64,000 nucleotides of DNA, taken from contig QHSX01000039.1 of NCBI GenBank assembly GCA_003221695.1, forward strand, positions 93,637-157,636, written 5' to 3'. This DNA comes from Candidatus Rokuibacteriota bacterium. Lineage in GTDB: Bacteria > Methylomirabilota > Methylomirabilia > Rokubacteriales > CSP1-6. Position 1 is the stretch's first letter. The number at the start of each line of letters is the position of its first letter. Both the position numbers and the translations under genes were made by a program. This document shows, in pieces, positions 3,368 through 41,040 of this stretch. Below the pieces are notes generated by a model. It was not told the origin of the DNA. It made no database searches and saw nothing but the letters and a program-made list of their open reading frames with translations.

Positions 3368-3697
3368 CTACGCCGAGAACGACGTGCCGCATCCACAGCT
3401 CGACTTTGCGCTGGGGTTTTGGAACGTGAATCCCCCCGTCAACCCCTGCTGCACGTAGTCGAGTGTCGTGCCGTTGAGGTACAGGTAGCTCTTCTTGTCC
3501 ACGACGACCTTGATGCCGTCGATCTCGAACTCTTTGTCGTGCGGCCCGATCTCGCTGTCGAACTCGAGCGAGTACGAGAGCCCCGAGCATCCCCCACCCT
3601 TGACGCCCATCCTCAGGAAGACGGTGTCGGGCAAACTCTGGGCCCGCTTGAGCTCCCTCACCTGCTTGGCCGCGGCTTCGGTCAGCGCCACCGCCAT
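3368..3697 (-). CDS. iscA: Fe-S cluster A-type carrier IscA
   Basis: 109 aa from MAVALTEAAAK...; C-terminal CGCGTSF motif. Confidence 0.85.
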   Translation of the reverse strand: MAVALTEAAAKQVRELKRAQSLPDTVFLRMGVKGGGCSGLSYSLEFDSEIGPHDKEFEIDGIKVVVDKKSYLYLNGTTLDYVQQGLTGGFTFQNPSAKSSCGCGTSFSA

Positions 3698-3714
3698 ACG
3701 GCTCCCCCAGTCCT

Positions 3715-4128
3715 TTACGTCGAGGACGCGGCGGCCGCGCCCTCCTTGATCCACTTCGTCTTGTAGTCCGCCAGCGCCGCCTTGATCGCGTCCTCGGCGA
3801 GCACCGAGCAGTGGATCTTGACGGGCGGCAGCTTCAGCTCGTTCACGATGTCGGTGTTCTTGATCTTGCCAGCCTCGTCGACCGTCTTGCCCTTCAGCCA
3901 CTCGGTGGCCAGGCTCGACGACGCGATCGCGCTGCCGCACCCGAACGTCTTGAACTTCGCATCTTCGATGACCCCGGTCTGGAGGTTCACCTTGATCTGC
4001 AGCTTCATCACGTCGCCGCACTCCGGCGCGCCGACGAGGCCAGTCCCCACGCCAGGCGCGTCCTTCGCGAAGGACCCGACGTTGCGCGGGTTGTTGTAGT
4101 GATCGACGACCTTCTCGCTGTACGCCAT
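3715..4128 (-). CDS. iscU: Fe-S cluster scaffold IscU
   Basis: MAYSEKVVDHYNNPRNVGS...GAPECGDVMKLQ...FKTFGCGSAIASSS...HCSVLAEDAIKAA signature. Confidence 0.9.
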   Translation of the reverse strand: MAYSEKVVDHYNNPRNVGSFAKDAPGVGTGLVGAPECGDVMKLQIKVNLQTGVIEDAKFKTFGCGSAIASSSLATEWLKGKTVDEAGKIKNTDIVNELKLPPVKIHCSVLAEDAIKAALADYKTKWIKEGAAAASST

Positions 4129-4140
4129 CCCCGTCCCCCT

Positions 4141-5367
4141 TTACTCAGCCTTCCACTGGATGGACTTGATATCAACACCTTCCTTCGCCAGCTCGTAGAG
4201 CGGCGACATATCCCGGAGCCGCTTCACCACCTCGATCGTGCGCCTGGCGACCCACTCCACCTCCTCCTCGGTGTTGAACCGGTGGAGGCTGAACCGGATC
4301 GACGAGTGGGCCAGCTCTGAGCTCGCTCCGAGCGCGGCGATCACGTACGACGGTTCGAGGGTGGCCGACGTGCACGCCGAGCCGGACGACAGCGCGGTCT
4401 CCTTGTTGAGCCCCATCAGGACCGACTCACCCTCGACGTAGGCGAACGAGATGTTCAGGTTCTGCGGCAGACGCCGCTCCGGATCGCCGTTCAGGAACGC
4501 CTCGTCCACGCTCCCGAGGATGGCGTCTTGGAGTCTGTCGCGGAGCTTCGCGAGCCGCGCGCGCTCCTCCGGCATGACCTCCTCGCAGATCGCCGCCGCC
4601 CGCCCAAAGCCCACAACGAGCGGCACCGGCAGAGTCCCCGACCGCATCCCGCGCTCGTGCCCGCCACCGTCGATCATGGGCGCGAGCCGCACGCGCGGCC
4701 CCTTGCGCCGCACGTAGAGCGCGCCCACGCCCTTCGGGCCGTAGATCAGGTGCGCCGTGCAGGAGAGGAGGTCGATGCCCATCGCCTCGGCGTCCACCGG
4801 GATCTTGCCGACGGCCTGGGTGGCGTCCGTGTGGAAGATGATCCCCTTCTCCTTCGCGAGCTTCCCGATCGCGGCGATGTCCTGGATCGTGCCGATCTCG
4901 TTGTTCGCGAACATGACCGAGATCAGGATCGTCTTGTCCGTGATCGCCTTCCTCACCTCGTCCACGTCCACGAGACCGTTCGGCTGCACCGGGACGTACG
5001 TGACCGCGAGCCCCTGCCGCTCGAGCCGCTTGCAGGTATCGAGCCCCGCCCGTTGCTCGATCGCCGTCGTGACGATGTGGTTCCCCTTCTCGCGGTACAT
5101 CTCGGCGACGCCCTTCAACGCGAGGTTGATCGCCTCGGTCCCGCCCGACGTGAACACGACCTCCTTGGGATCACGCGCGCCGATGAGGCGCGCGACCTTC
5201 GCCCGCGCGGCGTCCACGGCGCCCTCGGCTTCCCACCCGAAGGGATGGTTCCGGCTCGCGGGATGACCGAATTTCTCGGTGAAGTAGGGCAGCATCGCCT
5301 CGACGACCCGTGGGTCGCACGGCGTCGTCGACTGCGCGTCCATGAAGATCGGGAACTTCAGGGCCAT
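4141..5367 (-). CDS. iscS: Cysteine desulfurase IscS
   Basis: PLP-dependent class V aminotransferase; SSGSACTS active-site loop; start at MALKFPIFMD (ATG 5367) inside the longer track ORF. Confidence 0.9.
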   Translation of the reverse strand: MALKFPIFMDAQSTTPCDPRVVEAMLPYFTEKFGHPASRNHPFGWEAEGAVDAARAKVARLIGARDPKEVVFTSGGTEAINLALKGVAEMYREKGNHIVTTAIEQRAGLDTCKRLERQGLAVTYVPVQPNGLVDVDEVRKAITDKTILISVMFANNEIGTIQDIAAIGKLAKEKGIIFHTDATQAVGKIPVDAEAMGIDLLSCTAHLIYGPKGVGALYVRRKGPRVRLAPMIDGGGHERGMRSGTLPVPLVVGFGRAAAICEEVMPEERARLAKLRDRLQDAILGSVDEAFLNGDPERRLPQNLNISFAYVEGESVLMGLNKETALSSGSACTSATLEPSYVIAALGASSELAHSSIRFSLHRFNTEEEVEWVARRTIEVVKRLRDMSPLYELAKEGVDIKSIQWKAE

Positions 5368-5900: not shown

Positions 5901-7172
5901 ATGGCTGAGATGACGGATATATCCGAGTTCGAGTCGCCGCTCTACCGCACCGCGCTCGTTCAACTCGACCGGGTGGCAGCCCGGCTCGACCTCGAGTCTA
6001 ACATCCACGAGAGGCTCCGCCATCCCAGACGGGCCCTGGTGGTCTCGATTCCGGTCCGGATGGACGACGGGAACACCAAGGTTTTCCGGGGGTATCGAGT
6101 CCAGCACAGCACGGTGCTGGGGCCCACCAAGGGCGGCCTCCGTTACGACGCCGACGTCAACCTGGGCGAGGTCACCGCCCTGGCGATGCTCATGAGCTGG
6201 AAGTGCGCCCTGGCCGGACTCCCTTACGGCGGCGCCAAGGGAGGGGTCCGCTGCAACCCGAGAGCAATGTCGGTGACGGAGCGTGAGAACCTCACCCGTC
6301 GATACACCGTCGAGATCATGCTCGTGATCGGGCCCGACCACGACATCCCGGCCCCGGACCTCGGGACCGACGAGCAGACGATGGCGTGGATGATGGACAC
6401 CTACTCGATGACCCAGGGCAAGACCGTCCCCGGGATCGTCACCGGCAAGCCGCTCATCGTCGGCGGCTCCGCCGGGCGGCGGGAAGCCACGGGCCGGGGC
6501 ATCGTGTACGCCCTCTACCAGGCGGCGCGCCACCTCAGCCAGCCGCTCCGCGGGCAGCGCGTCGTCGTCCAGGGGTTCGGCAACGTCGGCAGCGTCGCGG
6601 CCCGCCTGCTCTGGCGTGAAGGCTGTGTGATCTCCGGCGTGGGCGACGTCAAGGGCGGCATCGTCAACCCGCACGGGATCGATATCCGCCAGCTCGAGGC
6701 TCACGTCGCCGAGGCGGGCACCGTCGCGGGGTTCCCCGGCACGGAGCCGGTCTCGAACGCCGAGCTCCTTGAGCAGCCGTGCGACATCCTGGTGCCGGCC
6801 GCGATCGGCTCCCAGATTCGCGAGGACAACGCCGACCGCATCAAGGCGACGATCGTCGCCGAGGGGGCCAACGGGCCGACGACCCCGGAGGCCGACGCGA
6901 TCCTGCGCGACCGAGGGGTGACGGTGATCCCCGACATCCTCGCGAACGCCGGCGGCGTCATCGTCTCGTACTTCGAGTGGGTCCAGGGGCTCCAGTACTA
7001 CTTCTGGCGCGAGAGCGAGATCACGACACGGCTGCAAGAGATCATGACGCGCGCCTTCAACCGCGTCTGGGCGCTCGGTGCCAAGGAAGGCACGGACCTC
7101 AGGACGGCCGCCCTCATGGAGGGCGTCCGTCGCGTTGCGGAAGGCTACCGGGTGCGGGGACTCTACCCTTAA
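5901..7172 (+). CDS. gdhA: Glutamate dehydrogenase (Glu/Leu/Phe/Val dehydrogenase family)
   Basis: 423 aa from MAEMTD...; GGAKGG and GFGNVGS motifs; the upstream part of the track ORF is 5'-leader artefact. Confidence 0.85.
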   Translation: MAEMTDISEFESPLYRTALVQLDRVAARLDLESNIHERLRHPRRALVVSIPVRMDDGNTKVFRGYRVQHSTVLGPTKGGLRYDADVNLGEVTALAMLMSWKCALAGLPYGGAKGGVRCNPRAMSVTERENLTRRYTVEIMLVIGPDHDIPAPDLGTDEQTMAWMMDTYSMTQGKTVPGIVTGKPLIVGGSAGRREATGRGIVYALYQAARHLSQPLRGQRVVVQGFGNVGSVAARLLWREGCVISGVGDVKGGIVNPHGIDIRQLEAHVAEAGTVAGFPGTEPVSNAELLEQPCDILVPAAIGSQIREDNADRIKATIVAEGANGPTTPEADAILRDRGVTVIPDILANAGGVIVSYFEWVQGLQYYFWRESEITTRLQEIMTRAFNRVWALGAKEGTDLRTAALMEGVRRVAEGYRVRGLYP

Positions 7173-8164
7173 CCAGCGTCGCGCGGCCAGGCGTCGCGGA
7201 GGCGCACGGCGGAGACCTCGGGCGGCGCCTCGTTGACGAAGATGCCGCCGACCCGGTTGGTCTGCTCCGGCTGGACGACGACCTCGAGGTGCCAGTGGTA
7301 GTCGTCGCGGATCGTCGCCCAGTCCCCCTGTAAGATTCGCGACCGGAGGTTCGGGGCCGTGTGGAGCACCATCTCGTAGCCCGGATCGCCGAGGCTCGTC
7401 GCGAGCGCGCGGAAGTAGTCCGAGAGCAGACGCGCGAGATCACGCGCGGTCTCCGCGGTCAGTCCCTCCTCGAACGAGCAGCCGTGCTGGCGCGGGAGGA
7501 TCCAGGTCTCGAGCGGGCCGCGCGCGGCGTACGGCACGAGCGCCGCGAACGTCGGCGTGAGACTCACGACGCGCTCCTCGGCGGCGATCTCCTGACGGAG
7601 CATGTCGCAGTAGAGACAGCGCCGCTTGTACTGATAGTACTCGCGCGCCTCCCGGAGCTCGCGGCGCGTCTCGTCGAACACGATCGGGATCGCGCTCACG
7701 CGCGAGTACGGATGGTGCGGCGGCACGCCGGGCTTCTTGTGGCGCCGCGAGACGAGGATGTCGCGGATCTGCCCGTCACGCTTGAGGTCCACGAGCCGGT
7801 CGCGGTACATCCACAGCACCGCCTCGAGCGCCGCGGGCGCCATCGTCGCGAGCGTGTCGTCGTGGCGCGGCGACTCGACGACGAGCTCGGAGGCGCCGCG
7901 CGGTGTGAGCATGTCGAACATCCCCACGCCCTCACGGACCAGCTCCCACTCGATCCGGAAATACGCGTCCCCCTCCGGCACGACGCGCACAGACCAGCCC
8001 CGGCCGTTCGGCGGGGAGCCGTCCTTACGGTACGCCGCGATCTCTGGACCGGTGAGGTGCTCGGCGCCGGGGCAGTAGGGACAGTCGCCCGCGGACGACC
8101 ACTTGCCCTTCGGGCGGATCAGCACCCAGTGGCCCCGCGTCGGGTCCTTCCTCAGCTCGTCCAC
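7169..8164 (-). CDS. Galactose-1-phosphate uridylyltransferase-like HIT-superfamily nucleotidyltransferase
   Basis: 331 aa; DCPYCPG zinc-type motif and GalT-like C-terminal half. Confidence 0.6.
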   Translation of the reverse strand: MDELRKDPTRGHWVLIRPKGKWSSAGDCPYCPGAEHLTGPEIAAYRKDGSPPNGRGWSVRVVPEGDAYFRIEWELVREGVGMFDMLTPRGASELVVESPRHDDTLATMAPAALEAVLWMYRDRLVDLKRDGQIRDILVSRRHKKPGVPPHHPYSRVSAIPIVFDETRRELREAREYYQYKRRCLYCDMLRQEIAAEERVVSLTPTFAALVPYAARGPLETWILPRQHGCSFEEGLTAETARDLARLLSDYFRALATSLGDPGYEMVLHTAPNLRSRILQGDWATIRDDYHWHLEVVVQPEQTNRVGGIFVNEAPPEVSAVRLRDAWPRDAG

Positions 8165-8257
8165 ACGCTTCCCCGAAACGGCGTGGCGGTCGGCGGCATC
8201 TCAACTATGATACTCATGGCCGCACGACGGCCGACACAGATTAACGCGGAGGCCGAG

Positions 8258-8500
8258 ATGAGCAGTCACGCCGTCACCGTGTATTCGAGCCCCACCTGAG
8301 GGCCCTGCAAAGCGGCGAAAGAGTTTCTTTCGTCTCAGGGGGTGCCCTTCGAGGACGTCAACGTGATGGCGAACGCCGATGCGCGCGAGGAGCTGGTCCG
8401 GCTCACCGGGCGCATGGCCGTCCCCGTGATCGTCGTCGATGGCCAGGTCGTCGTGGGCTTCGACCGGGCCAGACTGCAGGCGCTCCTGGCTACTCCTTGA
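8258..8500 (+). CDS. Glutaredoxin/NrdH-like selenoprotein (80 aa) with in-frame UGA (Sec) at 8297-8299 in the motif T-U-G-P-C
   Basis: ATG 8258 with GGAGG Shine-Dalgarno; translation MSSHAVTVYSSPT-U-GPCKAAKEFLSSQGVPFEDVNV...VPVIVVDGQVVVGFDRARLQALLATP is a complete Grx fold; Sec sits at the first Cys of the CxxC motif. Confidence 0.8.
8314..8334 (+). promoter_or_regulatory. Candidate SECIS hairpin for the Grx-like selenoprotein
   Basis: GGCGAAAGA-GUU-UCUUUCGUC, 9-bp stem starting 14 nt after the UGA. Confidence 0.5.
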
Positions 8501-17885: not shown

Positions 17886-18929
17886 TCACGCGGAAACCGG
17901 TACCAGCTGGCGGTAGACGTCGATGTAGCCGTCGATCTCGCGCGCCGCCGGGTACCGACGCGTGATCAACTCGCGTCCCGCGGCGCCCAGGCGGGCGCGG
18001 AGGGCGGGGTCGGAGGCGAGCAGCTCCGCGCGACGCTCGAACTCGGCCTCGTCGCGGAAGTGGAAGCCGGTGACGCCGTCCTCGATCAGAGATCGGTTGC
18101 CCTCGATGTCAGACGCCAGCACCGCACGACCCAGCGCCAGCGCCTCGAGCACGGAATTGGCCATCCCACCCTCGGAGATCGAGCAGTTCAGCACGACGTC
18201 GCCCGTGGCGAGGAGCCCGCCCATCTCGGCGTGGGGCACGGCACCGATCCAGCGGGCCCACGGCCGCCCCCGGAGGGCCCGGCGGAGCGCGTCGCCCTCG
18301 TCGGCGTCGAGCGTGGGCCCGACGTAGAGGAGGCGCACGCGCGGGCGTCGGGCGACGAGCCGTTCGAGCGGCTCGAGCGGGAAGCGTGGGCGCTTCACCA
18401 TCCGGATGCCGGCGGGGAAGACGAACAGGTCACGCTCCCGCGGGAGGTCCCAGCGGGCGCCGAGGTCGAAGGGCTCCGTCGTGTCGACCAGGGTGGACTG
18501 CGGAACGACGACGAGCCGCCCCCGGAGGTCGGGCAGCGCTCCGGCCACGCGCTCGGCGATCGAGTCATGGAAGGCGGTCAGACGCGCGGCGCCCTCGAGC
18601 ACACGGCGTACGACAGAGGCACGCTCGGGATCGAAGAGGTCGTGGTTGGCATCGGTGCCGGTCAGCGTCACGACCAGCGGGATCTCGGCCCGTCGGGCCT
18701 GGCGCAGCGCGAGCGGCCCCGCGCGATAGGCGTGGAAGGCGTGGACGACCGCGGGCCGAAACGCGTCCACCTCGGCCTCGACGGCCACCCCGGGGTGGAG
18801 CGAGAGGTCCCAAACGTCGACCTCGACACCGCGCGCGCGAAGGCCATGCGCCACCCGGGCGGCGGTCACGGCGTTGCCGCGCACCGAGGGGAACGCAAAC
18901 GGGGTGAGCAGCGCCACGCGCGGCGACAT
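17886..18929 (-). CDS. GT4-family glycosyltransferase
   Basis: GT-B fold; ...LSEGGMANSVLEALALGRAVLASDIEGN... EX7E-like C-terminal domain; start taken at MSPRVALL (ATG 18929). Confidence 0.7.
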   Translation of the reverse strand: MSPRVALLTPFAFPSVRGNAVTAARVAHGLRARGVEVDVWDLSLHPGVAVEAEVDAFRPAVVHAFHAYRAGPLALRQARRAEIPLVVTLTGTDANHDLFDPERASVVRRVLEGAARLTAFHDSIAERVAGALPDLRGRLVVVPQSTLVDTTEPFDLGARWDLPRERDLFVFPAGIRMVKRPRFPLEPLERLVARRPRVRLLYVGPTLDADEGDALRRALRGRPWARWIGAVPHAEMGGLLATGDVVLNCSISEGGMANSVLEALALGRAVLASDIEGNRSLIEDGVTGFHFRDEAEFERRAELLASDPALRARLGAAGRELITRRYPAAREIDGYIDVYRQLVPVSA

Positions 18930-19043
18930 CGGCCCCGAGCATACGGGCATCGGCGCGCTCCGTCCAGACGCCACGCGACGGGCCGCGGGTCCGGAATCTC
19001 TCACCCCGGCTCGACCGTCCTATATAATGTGCTGGGATCTTAG

Positions 19044-19313
19044 ATGTCTGAGTGCGGAGCGTCAGGACCCTCATCGATCGAGTGTCGGCAGATCGCCGAA
19101 CTCTTGGGCGAGTATCTCGAGGGAACTCTCCCCCAACAGACGCGCGAACTGCTGGAGTGGCACATCGAGGGCTGCGCCCCCTGCGTCGCCTTCGTCAACA
19201 CGTACCGCGGCACGATCACCGCCGCCCGCAAGCTCCGCGACGTCGACATCCCTCCCGAGCTGAAGAAACGGCTGCTGGCCGTTCTCCGCGCCCAGCGCGC
19301 CGCTAAGCCGTAA
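19044..19313 (+). CDS. Putative zinc-finger anti-sigma factor (zf-HC2/RsrA-like, 89 aa)
   Basis: H-x3-C-x2-C motif (HIEGCAPC) plus upstream Cys; no sigma-factor gene adjacent. Confidence 0.6.
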   Translation: MSECGASGPSSIECRQIAELLGEYLEGTLPQQTRELLEWHIEGCAPCVAFVNTYRGTITAARKLRDVDIPPELKKRLLAVLRAQRAAKP

Positions 19314-20367
19314 CCCGGATCACCGGCTCCGAAACAACCTCACCGATCTCCCAGCACTGCTCCCCGCGGCGGCGGAAGGCGTCCATCACGCCCCGCGCGC
19401 GAGCAGGCGCGACCGAGAAGAGGAGGCCGCCCGACGTCTCCGATTCCGTGAGCAGCGAAACGAGCGGCGCCGGGATCGACGGATCGATGCGCAGGCCCTC
19501 GCCGAAGACGGTGTCGACGTGCCGGCGATTACGCTTCATTCCGCCGCTCCAGTGGCCGGCCTCGGCGAGCTCGCGCGTGCCGGGAAGCAGGGGCAAGCGG
19601 GAGGCGCTGATCGCGATGCCGACGGCCGACGCCCTCACCATCTCACCGGCGTGACCGAGAAGACCGAAGCCCGTGATGTCGGTCGCTCCGCGGGCGCCGG
19701 CCTCGCGCGCGACCTCCGCCGCCACACGATTCAGCCTGAGCATGCTCGCGACGGCGCCCTGGAGCACCGCCAGGCTCGCGGCATTGTCCTTCGCGGCGGT
19801 CGTGATCACGCCAGTCCCCAGCGGCTTCGACAGGAAGAGCCGGTCGCCCGACCGGAGGCCGCCCTTGATGAGGATGCGGTCGGGGTGGACGCGTCCGGTC
19901 ACGCAGAGACCGTACTTGGGCTCGGCGTCGACGACCGTGTGCCCCCCCGCGATCACGCCGCCCGCCTCCGCGACCTTGTCACTGCCTCCCCGGAACACCT
20001 CCGCGATGATCGCCTTTGACATGTCGCGCGGGAAGCCCGCGACCGCGAGGGCGAACAGCACCTCGCCGCCCATGGCGAAGACATCGGACATGGAGTTCGT
20101 GGCCGAGATCGCGCCCCAGGTCCACGGGTCGTCGACCACCGGCGGGAAGAAGTCCACCGTCGCGACGATCGCCACGTCGGCGGTGATGCGGTAGACCGCG
20201 GCGTCGTCGGCCGCCCCCAGACCGACGAGCAGGTCCGGCTGCGCGCGACCCAGGGGCTTGAGCGCCTCGAGCACCTCCTGGAGATCTCCAGGAGCCATCT
20301 TGGACGCTCAGCCGGCGCAGGTGGCGTACGAGGTGAGTCGGACCTCCGTATGGGTGTGACTGGTCAT
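19303..20367 (-). CDS. selD: Selenophosphate synthetase SelD, selenocysteine-containing (UGA at 20308-20310)
   Basis: Extending the track ORF upstream through an in-frame TGA gives MTSHTHTEVRLTSYATCAG-U-ASKMAPGDLQEV..., collinear with E. coli SelD [21 protein letters not shown], with Sec at the Cys17 position; the rest of the protein has SelD/AIR-synthase-like motifs (DAAVY, DFFPP, NSMSDVFAMGG). Confidence 0.85.
20274..20293 (-). promoter_or_regulatory. Candidate SECIS hairpin in selD
   Basis: Perfect palindrome CUCCUGGA-GAUC-UCCAGGAG (8-bp stem) starting 14 nt after the UGA. Confidence 0.5.
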
Positions 20368-20374
20368 CGCGGTC

Positions 20375-21280
20375 TTAAGACGGCTCCGCCGGGGACTCCG
20401 ATTCGACGAACTGGACGAAGGCCTGGGCGAGCGGTGAGCGGCTCCGGTCGCGGTGGGTGACGAGATAGAACGCGCGCCCGACGCGCAGGTCGTGCACCCG
20501 GAGACAGAAGAGGAGCCCCGCGCGGCACTCGTCCTCCACGGCCCGCTTCGAGACGAGCGCGATCCCGACGCCCGCGCGCACGCCCTGCTTGATCGCCTGG
20601 GTCGAGCCCATCTCACCGACGACACGGAACGCCGACAGATCGGTGTCCGCCTGGTCGAGCGCCCGCTCGAGCGCCTCGCGCGAGCCCGAGCCCTGCTCGC
20701 GCACGATGAGGGGCTCGCGCCGAACGTCGGCGAGCGTCACGGTCTTGCGGTTGGTCCACGCGTGCCCCGCCGGGACGACGAGGACGAGCTCGTCGGCCAT
20801 CAACTCGCGCGCCAGCAGGGTCTTCGGACCGGGCGGCGCGCCGACGACGCCCACCTCGGCGCGTCCCGCCTCCACCCACTCGGTGACTTGGCGGCTCGAG
20901 CCGATCAGGAGGCAGATCGAGATGTCCGGATACTTGCCCTTGAACCGTCCGATCAGCGCGGGCAGCACGTACTCGCCCGGGATCGTGGAGCCGCCGACGA
21001 TGAGCTCGCCCGACATGCGTCCCTGGAACTGGTCGAGCGCCTGCTGCGCCTCGCGCTGGAGCGCGAGCATGCGGCGCGCGTAACCGAGCAAGAGCCGGCC
21101 CGCGTGGGTCGGCGTGGCGCCGCGGCCGAGCCGGTCGAGGAGCGGGACGCCGAGCTCGTCCTCGAGGGCGCGGACGTGTTCGGAGACGGTCGGCTGCGTC
21201 AGCGAGAGGGCGTCGGCGGCGCGGGAGAAGCTCCCCAACTCGGCCACCTTCGCGAACACCTCGAGGCGGCGAAGATCCAT
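20375..21280 (-). CDS. LysR-family transcriptional regulator
   Basis: N-terminal HTH (LEVFAKVAELGSFSRAADALSLTQPTVS) and LysR substrate-binding domain; 301 aa; stop lies 7 nt upstream of the selD start. Confidence 0.85.
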   Translation of the reverse strand: MDLRRLEVFAKVAELGSFSRAADALSLTQPTVSEHVRALEDELGVPLLDRLGRGATPTHAGRLLLGYARRMLALQREAQQALDQFQGRMSGELIVGGSTIPGEYVLPALIGRFKGKYPDISICLLIGSSRQVTEWVEAGRAEVGVVGAPPGPKTLLARELMADELVLVVPAGHAWTNRKTVTLADVRREPLIVREQGSGSREALERALDQADTDLSAFRVVGEMGSTQAIKQGVRAGVGIALVSKRAVEDECRAGLLFCLRVHDLRVGRAFYLVTHRDRSRSPLAQAFVQFVESESPAEPS

Positions 21281-21308
21281 GGGGAGCCGGAAGGGGGGGA
21301 GGCTCGGG

Positions 21309-21521
21309 TCAGTGGCAGCCGCAGCCGCCGCCGCAGCAGCCGCCGGTCGACATGGTCGACGACGGCGTGAAGCTACCGGCGGCCCGGAGACCGAACACCG
21401 ACAGCTTGCGCGTCACATTCGGGCTCGCGCACGCCCGGCACGCGACGGCGGTCGCGTGCCCGGCGACGTACGTCTCGAACTCCTCTCGGCACTCGGTGCA
21501 GCGGTACTCGTAGATCGGCAT
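21309..21521 (-). CDS. FmdB-family zinc-ribbon protein
   Basis: MPIYEYRCTECREEFE...CRAC... and a Cys/Gly-rich tail; 70 aa. Confidence 0.7.
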   Translation of the reverse strand: MPIYEYRCTECREEFETYVAGHATAVACRACASPNVTRKLSVFGLRAAGSFTPSSTMSTGGCCGGGCGCH

Positions 21522-24555: not shown

Positions 24556-25218
24556 CTACCGCAACAGCCCTTCGATCAGCGAGTGGGACGCGTCGCTGTC
24601 CCACTCGCGCGGCCCGAGTGCGATCGCGGTGAGGTAGCCCTGCCGGTTCACGATGAAGCTCGACGGCACCGCACGCACGCCGTAGGCGTTCGCGAGATCC
24701 ATCCGCGGGTCGAGCCCCACCGGGAACGTGAGCTTGTGCTCCTCGAGGTAGGGCCTGACGTTCTTCGTGTCCACGTCGACCGACACGGCCACGAGCACGA
24801 AGCGCTGGCCTTTCTGCGCTTGCCAGAGGCGCTCCATCGCCGGCATCTCCTCGCGGCAGGGCGGGCACCAGGTCGCCCAGAAGTTGATGAACACGACCTT
24901 TCCGCGCTCCGCGGCGAGCCGGAGCTTGGCGCCCCCCACGAGCGGCAGCGTGAAGTCCTCGGCGAGCTTCGCGCGCGACGGCGCGATGAGGTCGAGCTCC
25001 TTCATCGCGTGGGCGACGCTGAGGACGCGCCCCTTGCGGGGCTTGAGCGCCACTGGCGCGGAGGCCGGGGCGTCCGCCGGCGCGTCCTCGGCGCGGCGCG
25101 CGACGACCGGACCCGACGTCACGACCTCCGGCGCCGGCCGCACCGCGACCGCGAGCATCGCACCGGCGACCGCCGCGGCGACGGCGATGACGACCGTCAG
25201 CGCCAGCTTCTGCGACAT
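24556..25218 (-). CDS. Thioredoxin-like thiol:disulfide oxidoreductase (TlpA/ResA family), membrane-anchored
   Basis: N-terminal TM helix; WCPPC active site; adjacent to ccdA. Confidence 0.8.
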   Translation of the reverse strand: MSQKLALTVVIAVAAAVAGAMLAVAVRPAPEVVTSGPVVARRAEDAPADAPASAPVALKPRKGRVLSVAHAMKELDLIAPSRAKLAEDFTLPLVGGAKLRLAAERGKVVFINFWATWCPPCREEMPAMERLWQAQKGQRFVLVAVSVDVDTKNVRPYLEEHKLTFPVGLDPRMDLANAYGVRAVPSSFIVNRQGYLTAIALGPREWDSDASHSLIEGLLR

Positions 25219-25320
25219 CCCCGCCCCGCAATGATGAGCATCGTCACGGTCCAGAACACCGAGAGTATACCCCCACATTCCGTGAACCTTCCGTCAACCC
25301 TTGCTATAGTAAGCGGCCCC

Positions 25321-35463: not shown

Positions 35464-35994
35464 CTACTCCTGACCCTGCAATAAGAGCTTCACGACCTCC
35501 GGCGCAATCTCACGGGCGCGCCGGTCGAGCTCGGGCTCCGTGAGGTTCGCGATCGGGTGGGGCATGAGCAGGAACTTATAGGTCGGGACGCCCCACTGCG
35601 TGGCCATCGCCCGACCGGTCACCTCGAAGACGTCCGTCACGATGGACGCCGACGGTACGCTCGCCTTCTCCAGCAGGATTCCGTCGAGCACACTGCCCGA
35701 CGAGCAAGAGCCTCAGTCGCCGATGCCTGCGACCATGACGTCGCAGGTCTTCCGGACCTCCGCGATGATCTCCTCGTGGGCGGGCACCGACGCGTTGTGC
35801 TTGCGGAATAACTTCCAGTCGGCCGCGCCGTACTCGGCTTTCAGGATGTCGCCGATCTTGGCGAGGAGCCGGTCGGAGTTGAACTTCGTGTTCTCGATCA
35901 GCCCGACGCGCTTGCCTTCGAGCGACGCCGGCCGATCGACGAACGCGATGGTCTGCGTCCGGACCTCCGCGGTGGGGTCGAGGAGCTCGATCAT
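35464..35994 (-). CDS. UGSC-motif selenoprotein (paralog 1), ~176 aa, Sec encoded by TGA at 35713-35715
   Basis: ATG 35994 preceded by AGGAGG; two track ORFs (35713..36033 and 35464..35691) are in the same frame, separated only by TGA; read-through gives ...VMVAGIGD-U-GSCSSGSVLDGILLEK..., a UxxC redox motif; homologous to the N-terminal domain of 39451..41040, which has the same UGSC motif. Confidence 0.75.
35681..35704 (-). promoter_or_regulatory. Candidate SECIS-like hairpin for UGSC paralog 1
   Basis: CUCGUCG-(11 nt loop GGCAGUGUGCU)-CGACGG beginning 9 nt after the UGA; weaker than the other three. Confidence 0.3.
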
Positions 35995-39450: not shown

Positions 39451-41040
39451 TCAGTCGCCGATGGTGACGGTGACCGAGCGCGTGGCCCCGAAGGTCGGGA
39501 TGATCGCGGAATGTTTGCCCGGCCCTCCGGCGACGATCACCATGAGGTCGTCCGGGCTGGCGCAGAGCGCCACGTCCTCCGCGAGGAGCCGTCCCCTGAA
39601 GCGCTCGGGGTCGATCACCCCGAAGCGCTGGCGATTCTCCGGACTGAAGCGGTCGAGCCTCACGCGGGCGCGCTCCCAGATCGCCCGCTTGACGTCGGCC
39701 TTGGACCAGCCCGAGTCCGCGAACGTTCGCGCGTGCTCTGGGCCGAGGACGACGAGCGGCTCACCGCCGAGATAGACGTCGTTGCTCCCCGTCGTCGCCG
39801 CGGTGCCCGCGATCGCGAAGAGGAGCGCCTCGGCACTCGTCGAGCCGTGGTCGTTCACGTTGTGGGGCGCCTCCGAGCCGCACACGGTGACGCAACTCTC
39901 CGTCGCCCCGAACCCACGCTCGACGTGGAGCGGCGCCCACGGGCTCTCCGCCTCGTTCTCGGCCAGGCAGTACGAGTACTTCCCCGGATGGCCGAGTGTC
40001 GCCCGGTCCTCCCGTCCCGGCCGCGCGCCGCCGATATTCTGGAGGGTCAGGCGCACGGCGCGACCGATCACCGCGTTGGCGCGGTGGCCCTGGCCGAGCG
40101 CATTGGCGCCGGCGTTGATCGCGAGGTACCTCACGATCGGACCGTTGACGATGAGGAGTGGCGTGCACGGGTGCGTCGTCGTCTGGATCGCGTTCAGGTT
40201 GAAGCGCGGGTCGGCGAGCGCGCGGATCGCGGCGACGACGACCGGCAGGTGCTCGGGCAGGGCGCCCGCCAGCGCAAGGTTGGCCGCGATCGTCTCCAAG
40301 GTCGCCACGCCCCGGCGGGGTGCCAGCGTCGCGATCACCTCGGCGCGACGGGCCGCGAGGGCGCCGAGGATGCGCTCGACGCGCTCCGCCGTCGGTGGGA
40401 GCACGGGCATCCCGTCCGACCAGCCCTCGGTGAGGGCGAAGTCCTGGAAGAGGTCGATGTCCGCCGGCGCCCTGGCGATCGTGGTGGGGGTGGCCGACGT
40501 CAGCGCAGGCGGCGCGGGGTCGCGCGTGAGCGCGGCGATCACGCGATCGACGGCGTCGTCGGCCTTCGCGCGGGCGAGCTTCGGGTCGATACCCCCGAGC
40601 GGGTGCGGCACCGCGACGAGCCGGAGGTGCGGCACGCCGAGCGCCGCCGCGGCGGCCTCGGCGAGCGAGGCGAAGGCGTCGGTGCCCAGCACGGCGACCG
40701 GGACGCCGCGCGCCTCGATCTCCGCCGCGTCGTGGAAACTCCACGACGTGCAGGACCCTCAGTCGGCGGAGCCTGTGAGGACGACGTCCGACCCGGCGAC
40801 GACCTCGGCGATCACCGTCGCGGGGCGTGACGCGCCTGGCTTCCGCCATACGGTGACCGGCCCGGCGCCCGCGCGCTCGACGAGCAGCTCCGCGACCCGG
40901 CCGAGCAGCACCTCGGCGTTGGGCTTCGAGTTGTCGAGGATGCCGACGCGGAGGCCGGCGAGGCTCCCGCCGCGCCGTGCGGGCGGCTTGACCTCGCCGG
41001 TCGTGGCGCCGAGCGGGCTCAGGACGTCGACGCGGCTCAT
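39451..41040 (-). CDS. Fusion selenoprotein (529 aa): N-terminal UGSC-motif domain (Sec at TGA 40759-40761) joined to the ~340-aa uncharacterised domain
   Basis: The two track ORFs 40759..41040 and 39451..40692 share a frame; the 66-nt gap after the TGA has no stop; read-through gives ...VVLTGSAD-U-GSCTSWSFHDAAEIEARGVPVAVLGTDAF...; ATG 41040 immediately follows the MFS stop. Confidence 0.75.
40728..40748 (-). promoter_or_regulatory. Candidate SECIS hairpin for the UGSC fusion selenoprotein
   Basis: CGUCGUGG-AGUUU-CCACGACG, a perfect 8-bp stem starting 10 nt after the UGA. Confidence 0.5.

Follow-up and report, generated by a model that had tools for sequence, protein, structure and literature searches.

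The analysis covered one 64-kb stretch of DNA (hereafter referred to as the window), and all coordinates refer to that stretch unless a related locus is named. On its plus strand, a gene of 80 codons plus a stop codon, encoding a glutaredoxin (Grx)-like selenoprotein, extends from 8258 to 8500 when the UGA at codon 14 is read through. In this frame MSSHAVTVYSSPT is followed by TGA at 8297-8299 and then by GPCKAAKEFLSS...; the full translation after the UGA, GPCKAAKEFLSSQGVPFEDVNVMANADAREELVRLTGRMAVPVIVVDGQVVVGFDRARLQALLATP, runs up to the next stop, the TGA at 8498-8500, giving 80 sense positions. A Shine-Dalgarno-like GGAGG (8248-8252, plus strand) was located 5 nt before the ATG at 8258-8260. 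When read as selenocysteine (Sec), the UGA supplies residue 14 and opens a U-G-P-C redox motif (8297-8308, plus strand). A bSECIS-like hairpin lies within the coding sequence at 8314-8334 on the same strand (codons for AAKEFLSS). The initial annotation, which had described an ATG with a good Shine-Dalgarno sequence, a TGA reached after 13 codons, an 80-aa frame free of further disruption and a 9-bp hairpin 14 nt past the UGA, was thus accurate on each of these features, with one of the nine hairpin pairs being G-U.

It had also stated that stop-to-stop ORF calling misses this gene, and the ORF listing at the locus indeed contains only a 52-aa ORF with a GTG start (8342-8500, plus strand) and a 312-aa ORF (7361-8299) that ends at the TGA. 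The 312-aa ORF had been described as antisense and ending at this TGA; its end was placed correctly, but it is encoded on the plus strand, in the frame shared with the Grx start, and it ends in 13 residues that form the Grx N-terminus. The one gene to which it is antisense is GalT-like (7169-8164, minus strand) and is real as judged by NCBIfam matches. GC contents at the three codon positions of the 312-aa ORF (0.93/0.49/0.71) are the mirror image of those of the GalT-like gene (0.71/0.48/0.93), and the ORF is therefore a shadow ORF over most of its length. The 52-aa fragment, which is also the product in public annotation, is identical to P0014, an NCBI 'hypothetical protein' from Candidatus Rokuibacteriota. 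The NCBI contig encoding this identical product (L037) differs from the window at about 18% of ungapped positions, and is thus either a relative or shifted by indels and not demonstrably the source. Public records of this gene and of dozens of its orthologues hold fragments of 50-66 aa under the names 'hypothetical protein', 'glutaredoxin' or 'NrdH-redoxin, partial'; these fragments lack the catalytic residue, and the reading given here provides an annotation fix for them.

Profile searches were run on the 80-aa product with U replaced by C. The product matched Pfam PF00462 (Glutaredoxin) with 76.7 bits (cutoff 22.9; E = 1.6e-21; residues 6-65 on profile positions 1-60 of 60), and NCBIfam TIGR02196 (GlrX_YruB; glutaredoxin-like, YruB family) with 92.9 bits (cutoff 88.55), the latter match spanning profile positions 2-73 of 74. 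Its best match among solved structures was PDB 7C10 (E = 1e-16). The 51% identity to this structure over 73 residues settles the Grx fold of the predicted product, and the Grx-like fold that had been proposed from the letters alone was in this way confirmed. A G-P dipeptide followed by Lys, as in the U-G-P-C-K motif here, is a thioredoxin-type active-site sequence, and glutaredoxins have P-Y or P-H at the dipeptide.

In order to compare the Sec column across relatives, a scan with one genome per species was used, and the resulting 33 loci were translated in register. The column is occupied by TGA in 26 related loci, which represent at least three lineages, and by Cys in six. The TGA loci comprise 18 of Rokubacteria/Methylomirabilota type, four labelled Dehalococcoidia/Syntrophaceae, three from Clostridia (L024-L026, which read T-U-P-H-C and have a downstream hairpin of their own) and a truncated copy (L033). 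The Cys loci are from Brassicibacter (L022, 'TSNTCGYC'), Saccharibacteria (L027), Phycisphaeraceae (L028 and L029) and two alphaproteobacteria (L031 and L032). A further Cys-form protein, P0005, reads 'SSPTCGPCK'. The TGA had been placed at the first Cys of a CxxC motif, and alignment to Cys-containing homologues had been suggested as a check; the alignment bears the placement out, with Cys opposite the TGA in all six Cys loci, in P0005 and in many other homologues. The second Cys of the redox motif is invariant in an alignment of 25 proteins. An ATG with a GGAGG/GAGG-like element recurs 10-15 codons before the TGA in most of the related loci.

Several further observations were made in this comparison. 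The codon before the UGA (8294-8299 for the two codons here) is ACC in 19/19 Rokubacteria sequences and the codon after it is GGG in 16/19; both are four-fold degenerate, and their constancy may point to an influence of codon context on Sec decoding. In L033 (5001-5078; Rokubacteria), a copy with start, TGA and hairpin breaks off after about 26 codons, and is either a decayed paralogue or the result of an assembly break. In the Dehalococcoidia-type loci (L018, L020, L021 and L023), the Sec Grx domain (T-U-G-Y-C) runs on into a C-terminal extension. This extension is a PDZ domain by Pfam in L023 (4087-4602), the sole locus scanned, where the gene adjoins dxr and an M50/PDZ protease.

The hairpin downstream of the UGA consists of GGCGAAAGA (8314-8322), a GUU loop (8323-8325) and UCUUUCGUC (8326-8334), and has a free energy of -9.2 kcal/mol when folded alone. 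The published bSECIS consensus specifies a loop of 3-9 nt, a stem of 4-16 bp, a UGA-to-loop spacing of 16-37 nt, a G in the first two loop positions that is usually followed by G or U, and a minimum free energy (MFE) of -7.5 kcal/mol or lower (PMC13188914). With its 3-nt GUU loop, 9 bp and spacing of 23 nt, the Grx hairpin fits this consensus fully, so that the bSECIS prediction suggested as a check places 8314-8334 within the published model; the loop has the minimum length that the model allows, and the stem is A-U rich.

Codon usage across the hairpin is unusual in two respects. Across 19 orthologues, the synonymous diversity of codons +5 to +11 (GCG GCG AAA GAG TTT CTT TCG) is 0-0.11, whereas typical degenerate codons in the rest of the Grx gene reach 0.4-0.7; the hairpin itself runs through TCT at codon +12. 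Furthermore, the hairpin is built from codons that are rare in the confident genes of this 70% GC window (AAA 4.7%, TTT 4.4%, CTT 3.2% and TCT 4.0% of their synonymous families), and the other Phe and Leu codons of the Grx gene are TTC and CTG/CTC. This codon choice is the strongest evidence for selection on the hairpin at the RNA level.

Hairpins in other lineages were built from different sequences. At the same place, the Dehalococcoidia sequences form GCCAAGA/GUUU/UCUUGGC or GUCAAGA/GUUU/UCUUGAC, which differ by one exchange of a C-G for a U-A pair, while the amino acids encoded there are different (QAKSFLGG). In Clostridia the hairpin is UACCUUUC/GGA/GAAAGGUG and is positioned a few nucleotides more 3'. 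Among Cys-form genes, P0005 has AAG and CTG in place of AAA and CTT, giving a stem mismatch, and the Phycisphaeraceae genes read AAG GAG TTC CTG and are without the hairpin. Covariation on the hairpin alignment was not significant (score 0.132 versus 0.122 in shuffles, with 66/500 shuffles scoring as high), owing to a stem that is nearly invariant in Rokubacteria and to a 1-nt shift in Dehalococcoidia. The evidence at the RNA level is therefore that of synonymous-site freezing and of the independent hairpins in other lineages. The MFE fold of a 60-nt segment (-26.6 kcal/mol; z = -2.2; 4/200 shuffles fold as well) adds a possible extended lower stem at 8298-8349 on the plus strand, which is weakly supported and varies between orthologues. 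A scan of the whole window at Rfam gathering thresholds returned no match, and the Grx hairpin thus lies outside every curated Rfam family.

Sec use in the window is not confined to the Grx gene. About 11 kb away, selD (selenide, water dikinase; 19303-20367, minus strand) was identified by TIGR00476 (323.8 bits; cutoff 125). It has an in-frame TGA at 20308-20310 (…SYATCAG-U-ASKMAPGDL…), at which stop-to-stop ORF calling truncates it; this TGA occupies the catalytic Cys position (Cys17-equivalent) of the Cys-type SelD encoded in L035 (GGGCGCK). Directly upstream of selD is a selenium-metabolism-associated LysR-family regulator (20375-21412 by stop-to-stop bounds, minus strand; NF040786, 302.2 bits against a cutoff of 250). 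A GC3-based read-through scan then revealed two further in-frame TGAs on the minus strand, at 35713-35715 and 40759-40761. The former lies in a gene for a 176-aa UGSC-family selenoprotein (35464-35994; …AGIGD-U-GSCSS…; NF041046, 138.6 bits against 125), and the latter in a gene for a 529-aa selenoprotein with an N-terminal UGSC domain (39451-41040; …TGSAD-U-GSCTS…). Both products pass the NF041046/PF24696 models ('UGSC family (seleno)protein'), with the TGA as the U of UGSC; the C-terminal ~350 aa of the 529-aa fusion had no Pfam or NCBIfam match.

Each of the four UGAs is followed by a hairpin of the same kind, with a G-first loop. The Grx-like hairpin (9 bp, GUU loop) is found 23 nt after its UGA, the hairpin of the shorter UGSC gene (TGA 35713; 10 bp, GUG loop) 19 nt after, that of the UGSC fusion (TGA 40759; 9 bp, GUU loop) also 19 nt after, and that of selD (8 bp, GAUC loop) 21 nt after. 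When a strict hairpin-plus-open-frame filter was applied to the 1,377 TGA triplets on both strands, seven sites passed, three of which are homology-supported Sec sites; the fourth Sec site (UGSC, 35713-35715) fails the filter only at the limit of one G-U stem pair. Together with the TGA shared by 26 other loci and the rare codons of the hairpin, this places the pattern at the Grx gene beyond chance.

Other components of the Sec machinery were searched for as well. ARAGORN detected no tRNA genes, and hence no tRNA-Sec, either in the window or in the 33 related loci. When about 40 window proteins were scanned against NCBIfam, selD was recognised but selA and selB were not, and neither these two genes nor tRNA-Sec lay in the flanks examined. 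Because selD would itself need Sec insertion, the rest of the machinery should exist in the genome, and we infer a complete set from the Sec-type selD. Two side observations concern the same region. A family-4 glycosyltransferase (17886-19019, minus strand), directly downstream of selD, scores 112 bits against a cutoff of 300 for the selenoneine selenosugar synthase SenB, a weak resemblance that may be a coincidence or may mark a selenium-linked sugar transferase. A ResA/TlpA-like thiol-disulfide oxidoreductase (24556-25293, minus strand) has weak similarity, far below the cutoff, to a 'WAxxUGC' selenoprotein family.

The best matches to the locus, with full synteny, are in Candidatus Rokubacteria/Methylomirabilota metagenome-assembled genomes (MAGs). 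The gene order in Rokubacteria is IscS, glutamate dehydrogenase, GalT-like, Grx(Sec), TPR, a giant BatA/VWA protein, DUF58 and MoxR ATPase. These neighbours suggest no redox partner, nor do those in Clostridia and Dehalococcoidia (ArsR, CDF transporter, Crp, Dxr and M50 protease). Three contigs labelled Deferrimicrobiaceae (L012), Limnocylindria (L015) and the archaeon Nitrosotalea (L017) show the complete Rokubacteria gene order, with protein identities of 60-80%, and are probably mis-binned. The Cys-form P0005 (L034-L036; 66-67% identical) is encoded divergently beside a Cys-type selD (in L035, gene at 5001-5240 and selD at 3511-4563 on the minus strand); adjacency of Grx to selD was seen with P0005 and at no other locus. 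By its sequence, P0005 looks like a recent Sec-to-Cys switch in which the hairpin codons have partly reverted (AAG, CTG).

An in-frame TGA at this position could also have arisen by a nonsense mutation at the first active-site Cys (TGC/TGT to TGA), in which case the gene would be a pseudogene making a 13-residue peptide or nothing. For TGC a single base change is enough, selA, selB and tRNA-Sec are not visible in the window, and the copy in one relative, L033, does break off after about 26 codons. A mutation of this kind does not account for the same TGA in 26 loci that span 51-94% protein identity and several phyla, for purifying selection on both flanks with no further disruptions, for a frozen hairpin of rare codons, or for synteny of the locus in 17 Rokubacteria genomes. 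The comparative data effectively refute the pseudogene, which we regard as extremely unlikely. A real but shorter product is equally hard to sustain. It would consist of 52 aa from the GTG at 8342, or of about 66 aa from a start just past the TGA, with the upstream part untranslated, and public collections do hold dozens of calls of 50-52 aa and of 62-66 aa. Such a protein would be without strand beta-1 and the entire redox motif and would cover the Pfam domain in part only, whereas the Cys-form homologues are full length (77-84 aa). In addition, amino acids are retained at codons -8 to -2 despite a synonymous pair diversity of 0.44-0.68 (19 Rokubacteria-type sequences), from which it follows that the codons ahead of the UGA are translated in the Grx frame; the 13 upstream codons are thus conserved as protein, behind a conserved ATG and SD-like element. 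There is accordingly hardly any probability left for the short product.

The UGA might instead be read as a standard amino acid, either Trp or Cys by near-cognate suppression or Trp or Gly under a reassigned code. In favour of such a reading, Trp stands exactly at the Sec position in several database entries (P0003, P0008, P0011, P0077, P0078 and P0111). These residues are most simply explained by a UGA=Trp translation table, and the entries are likely selenoproteins whose TGA was translated as Trp by the source and which are hidden there as apparent full-length proteins. Within the window, TGA is the stop of 17/33 confident genes and the commonest true stop, so the genetic code is not reassigned. 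The column also aligns with a catalytic Cys, not with Trp or Gly, and a SECIS-type hairpin and a Sec-type selD are both present. Decoding as a standard amino acid is therefore very unlikely, if marginally less so than the pseudogene or the short product. In combination, the shared TGA column, the translated upstream codons, the conserved start with its SD-like element and the use of TGA as a genuine stop effectively exclude the pseudogene and the short downstream ORF as well as a genome-wide change of the code.

We conclude with high confidence that the gene at 8258-8500 encodes, as far as can be predicted from sequence, a YruB/Grx1-type Sec glutaredoxin (a thiol/selenol-disulfide oxidoreductase), a known kind of bacterial selenoprotein, here in an uncultured phylum, whose genes are truncated by ordinary gene callers. 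For this selenoprotein we infer the following course of Sec insertion, SelB binding and catalysis. Translation would start at the ATG at 8258. At the UGA at 8297 it would not terminate, and the hairpin at 8314-8334 is proposed to let the ribosome pass this codon by serving as a bacterial SECIS element. If the E. coli system is taken as a guide, SelB-GTP-Sec-tRNA(Sec) would be bound by the hairpin and brought from there to the A site, with selenophosphate, the selenium donor, presumably supplied by the SelD encoded 11 kb away. Based on homology with Grx1 and with the Grx/Trx superfamily, Sec14 would serve as the nucleophile and Cys17 as the resolving residue, and the product would act on partner proteins by reducing their disulfides or sulfenic/selenenic intermediates. 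Its physiological reductant may be glutathione or thioredoxin reductase.

It is improbable, though less so than any of the alternatives weighed above, that the Rokubacteria/Methylomirabilota clade is a distinct 'seleno-redoxin' and not a GSH-dependent glutaredoxin. Such a group may be marked by the thioredoxin-type U-G-P-C-K, the minimal Grx fold and the fixed position between the GalT-like gene and the TPR/BatA-MoxR cluster. A seleno-redoxin could be reduced by thioredoxin reductase, and it could take part in selenium trafficking, e.g., in a selenite/selenotrisulfide reduction that feeds SelD. The sole hint for a trafficking role is the position of P0005, the one Cys-form orthologue examined, beside a Cys-type selD.

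Identification of the Sec glutaredoxin leaves knowledge of Sec decoding unchanged and adds no new mechanism or biological principle. It is of use for describing an uncultured soil and groundwater phylum, which four UGA-Sec genes in 64 kb show to be selenoprotein-rich. This density agrees with a recent report in which 63 selenoprotein genes were predicted for a single Methylomirabilota MAG (PMC13188914). The four hairpins additionally provide a lineage-specific search pattern for the remaining selenoproteins, namely a stem of 8-10 bp and a G-first loop of 3-4 nt located 19-23 nt after the UGA.

Related redoxin families were also compared with the 80-aa product. The NrdH-redoxin model (TIGR02194), whose members are similar in size and fold, gave 58.2 bits, below its cutoff of 85.75, and the Grx neighbours include no ribonucleotide reductase genes. 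A close relative is entered as 'NrdH-redoxin, partial' in one public record. By these model scores, the predicted product is neither a canonical GSH-dependent Grx nor an NrdH. The broad Uxx-star subfamily model (NF041212) gave 68 bits against a cutoff of 66, over profile positions 1-66 of 70 only, and Uxx-star families 1-3 (NF041114, NF041211 and NF047338) all scored below their cutoffs (40-50 bits against 72-100). The name of the Uxx-star family implies a C-terminal Sec three residues before the stop, while here Sec belongs to the redox motif near the N-terminus; the product ends with ...LLATP before the stop, and read-through of the terminal TGA yields no U-x-x-stop. The YruB family (TIGR02196) was defined on Cys proteins of unknown reductant, whereas its Rokubacteria member has Sec at the position of the first Cys.

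Comparison with known Grx-like selenoproteins, a further check suggested in the initial annotation, led to a native selenoprotein as the nearest structure. PDB 7C10 is glutaredoxin-1 of Clostridium oremlandii, which has a U(C)PXC site and was crystallised after replacement of Sec by Cys (PMC7642778). Grx (PF00462, UxxC) is listed among the experimentally verified bacterial selenoprotein families in a 2026 review (PMC13188914), and ten Grx selenoprotein genes were reported in the survey of the Sargasso Sea through which the family was first set out (PMC1088965). The gene described here shares with this family the Pfam domain, the UxxC motif and a SECIS element directly 3' of the UGA with a G in the apical loop; the reported sequences are marine, deltaproteobacterial and clostridial, whereas the present one is from Rokubacteria. 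A selenoprotein MsrA, the proposed partner of C. (Alkaliphilus) oremlandii cGrx1 (PDB 7C10/7C12), was not seen in the 64-kb window. The two proteins differ in the active-site dipeptide, which is P-H in cGrx1 (UPHC) and G-P here, and the host of the present gene is a 70% GC Rokubacteria/Methylomirabilota genome with a SECIS hairpin of different sequence and position. They have in common a small Grx-type fold (about 80 residues) whose UxxC begins with Sec, and the motifs KEFLS, MAVPVI and VVGFDR are found in both cGrx1 and the Rokubacteria Grx.
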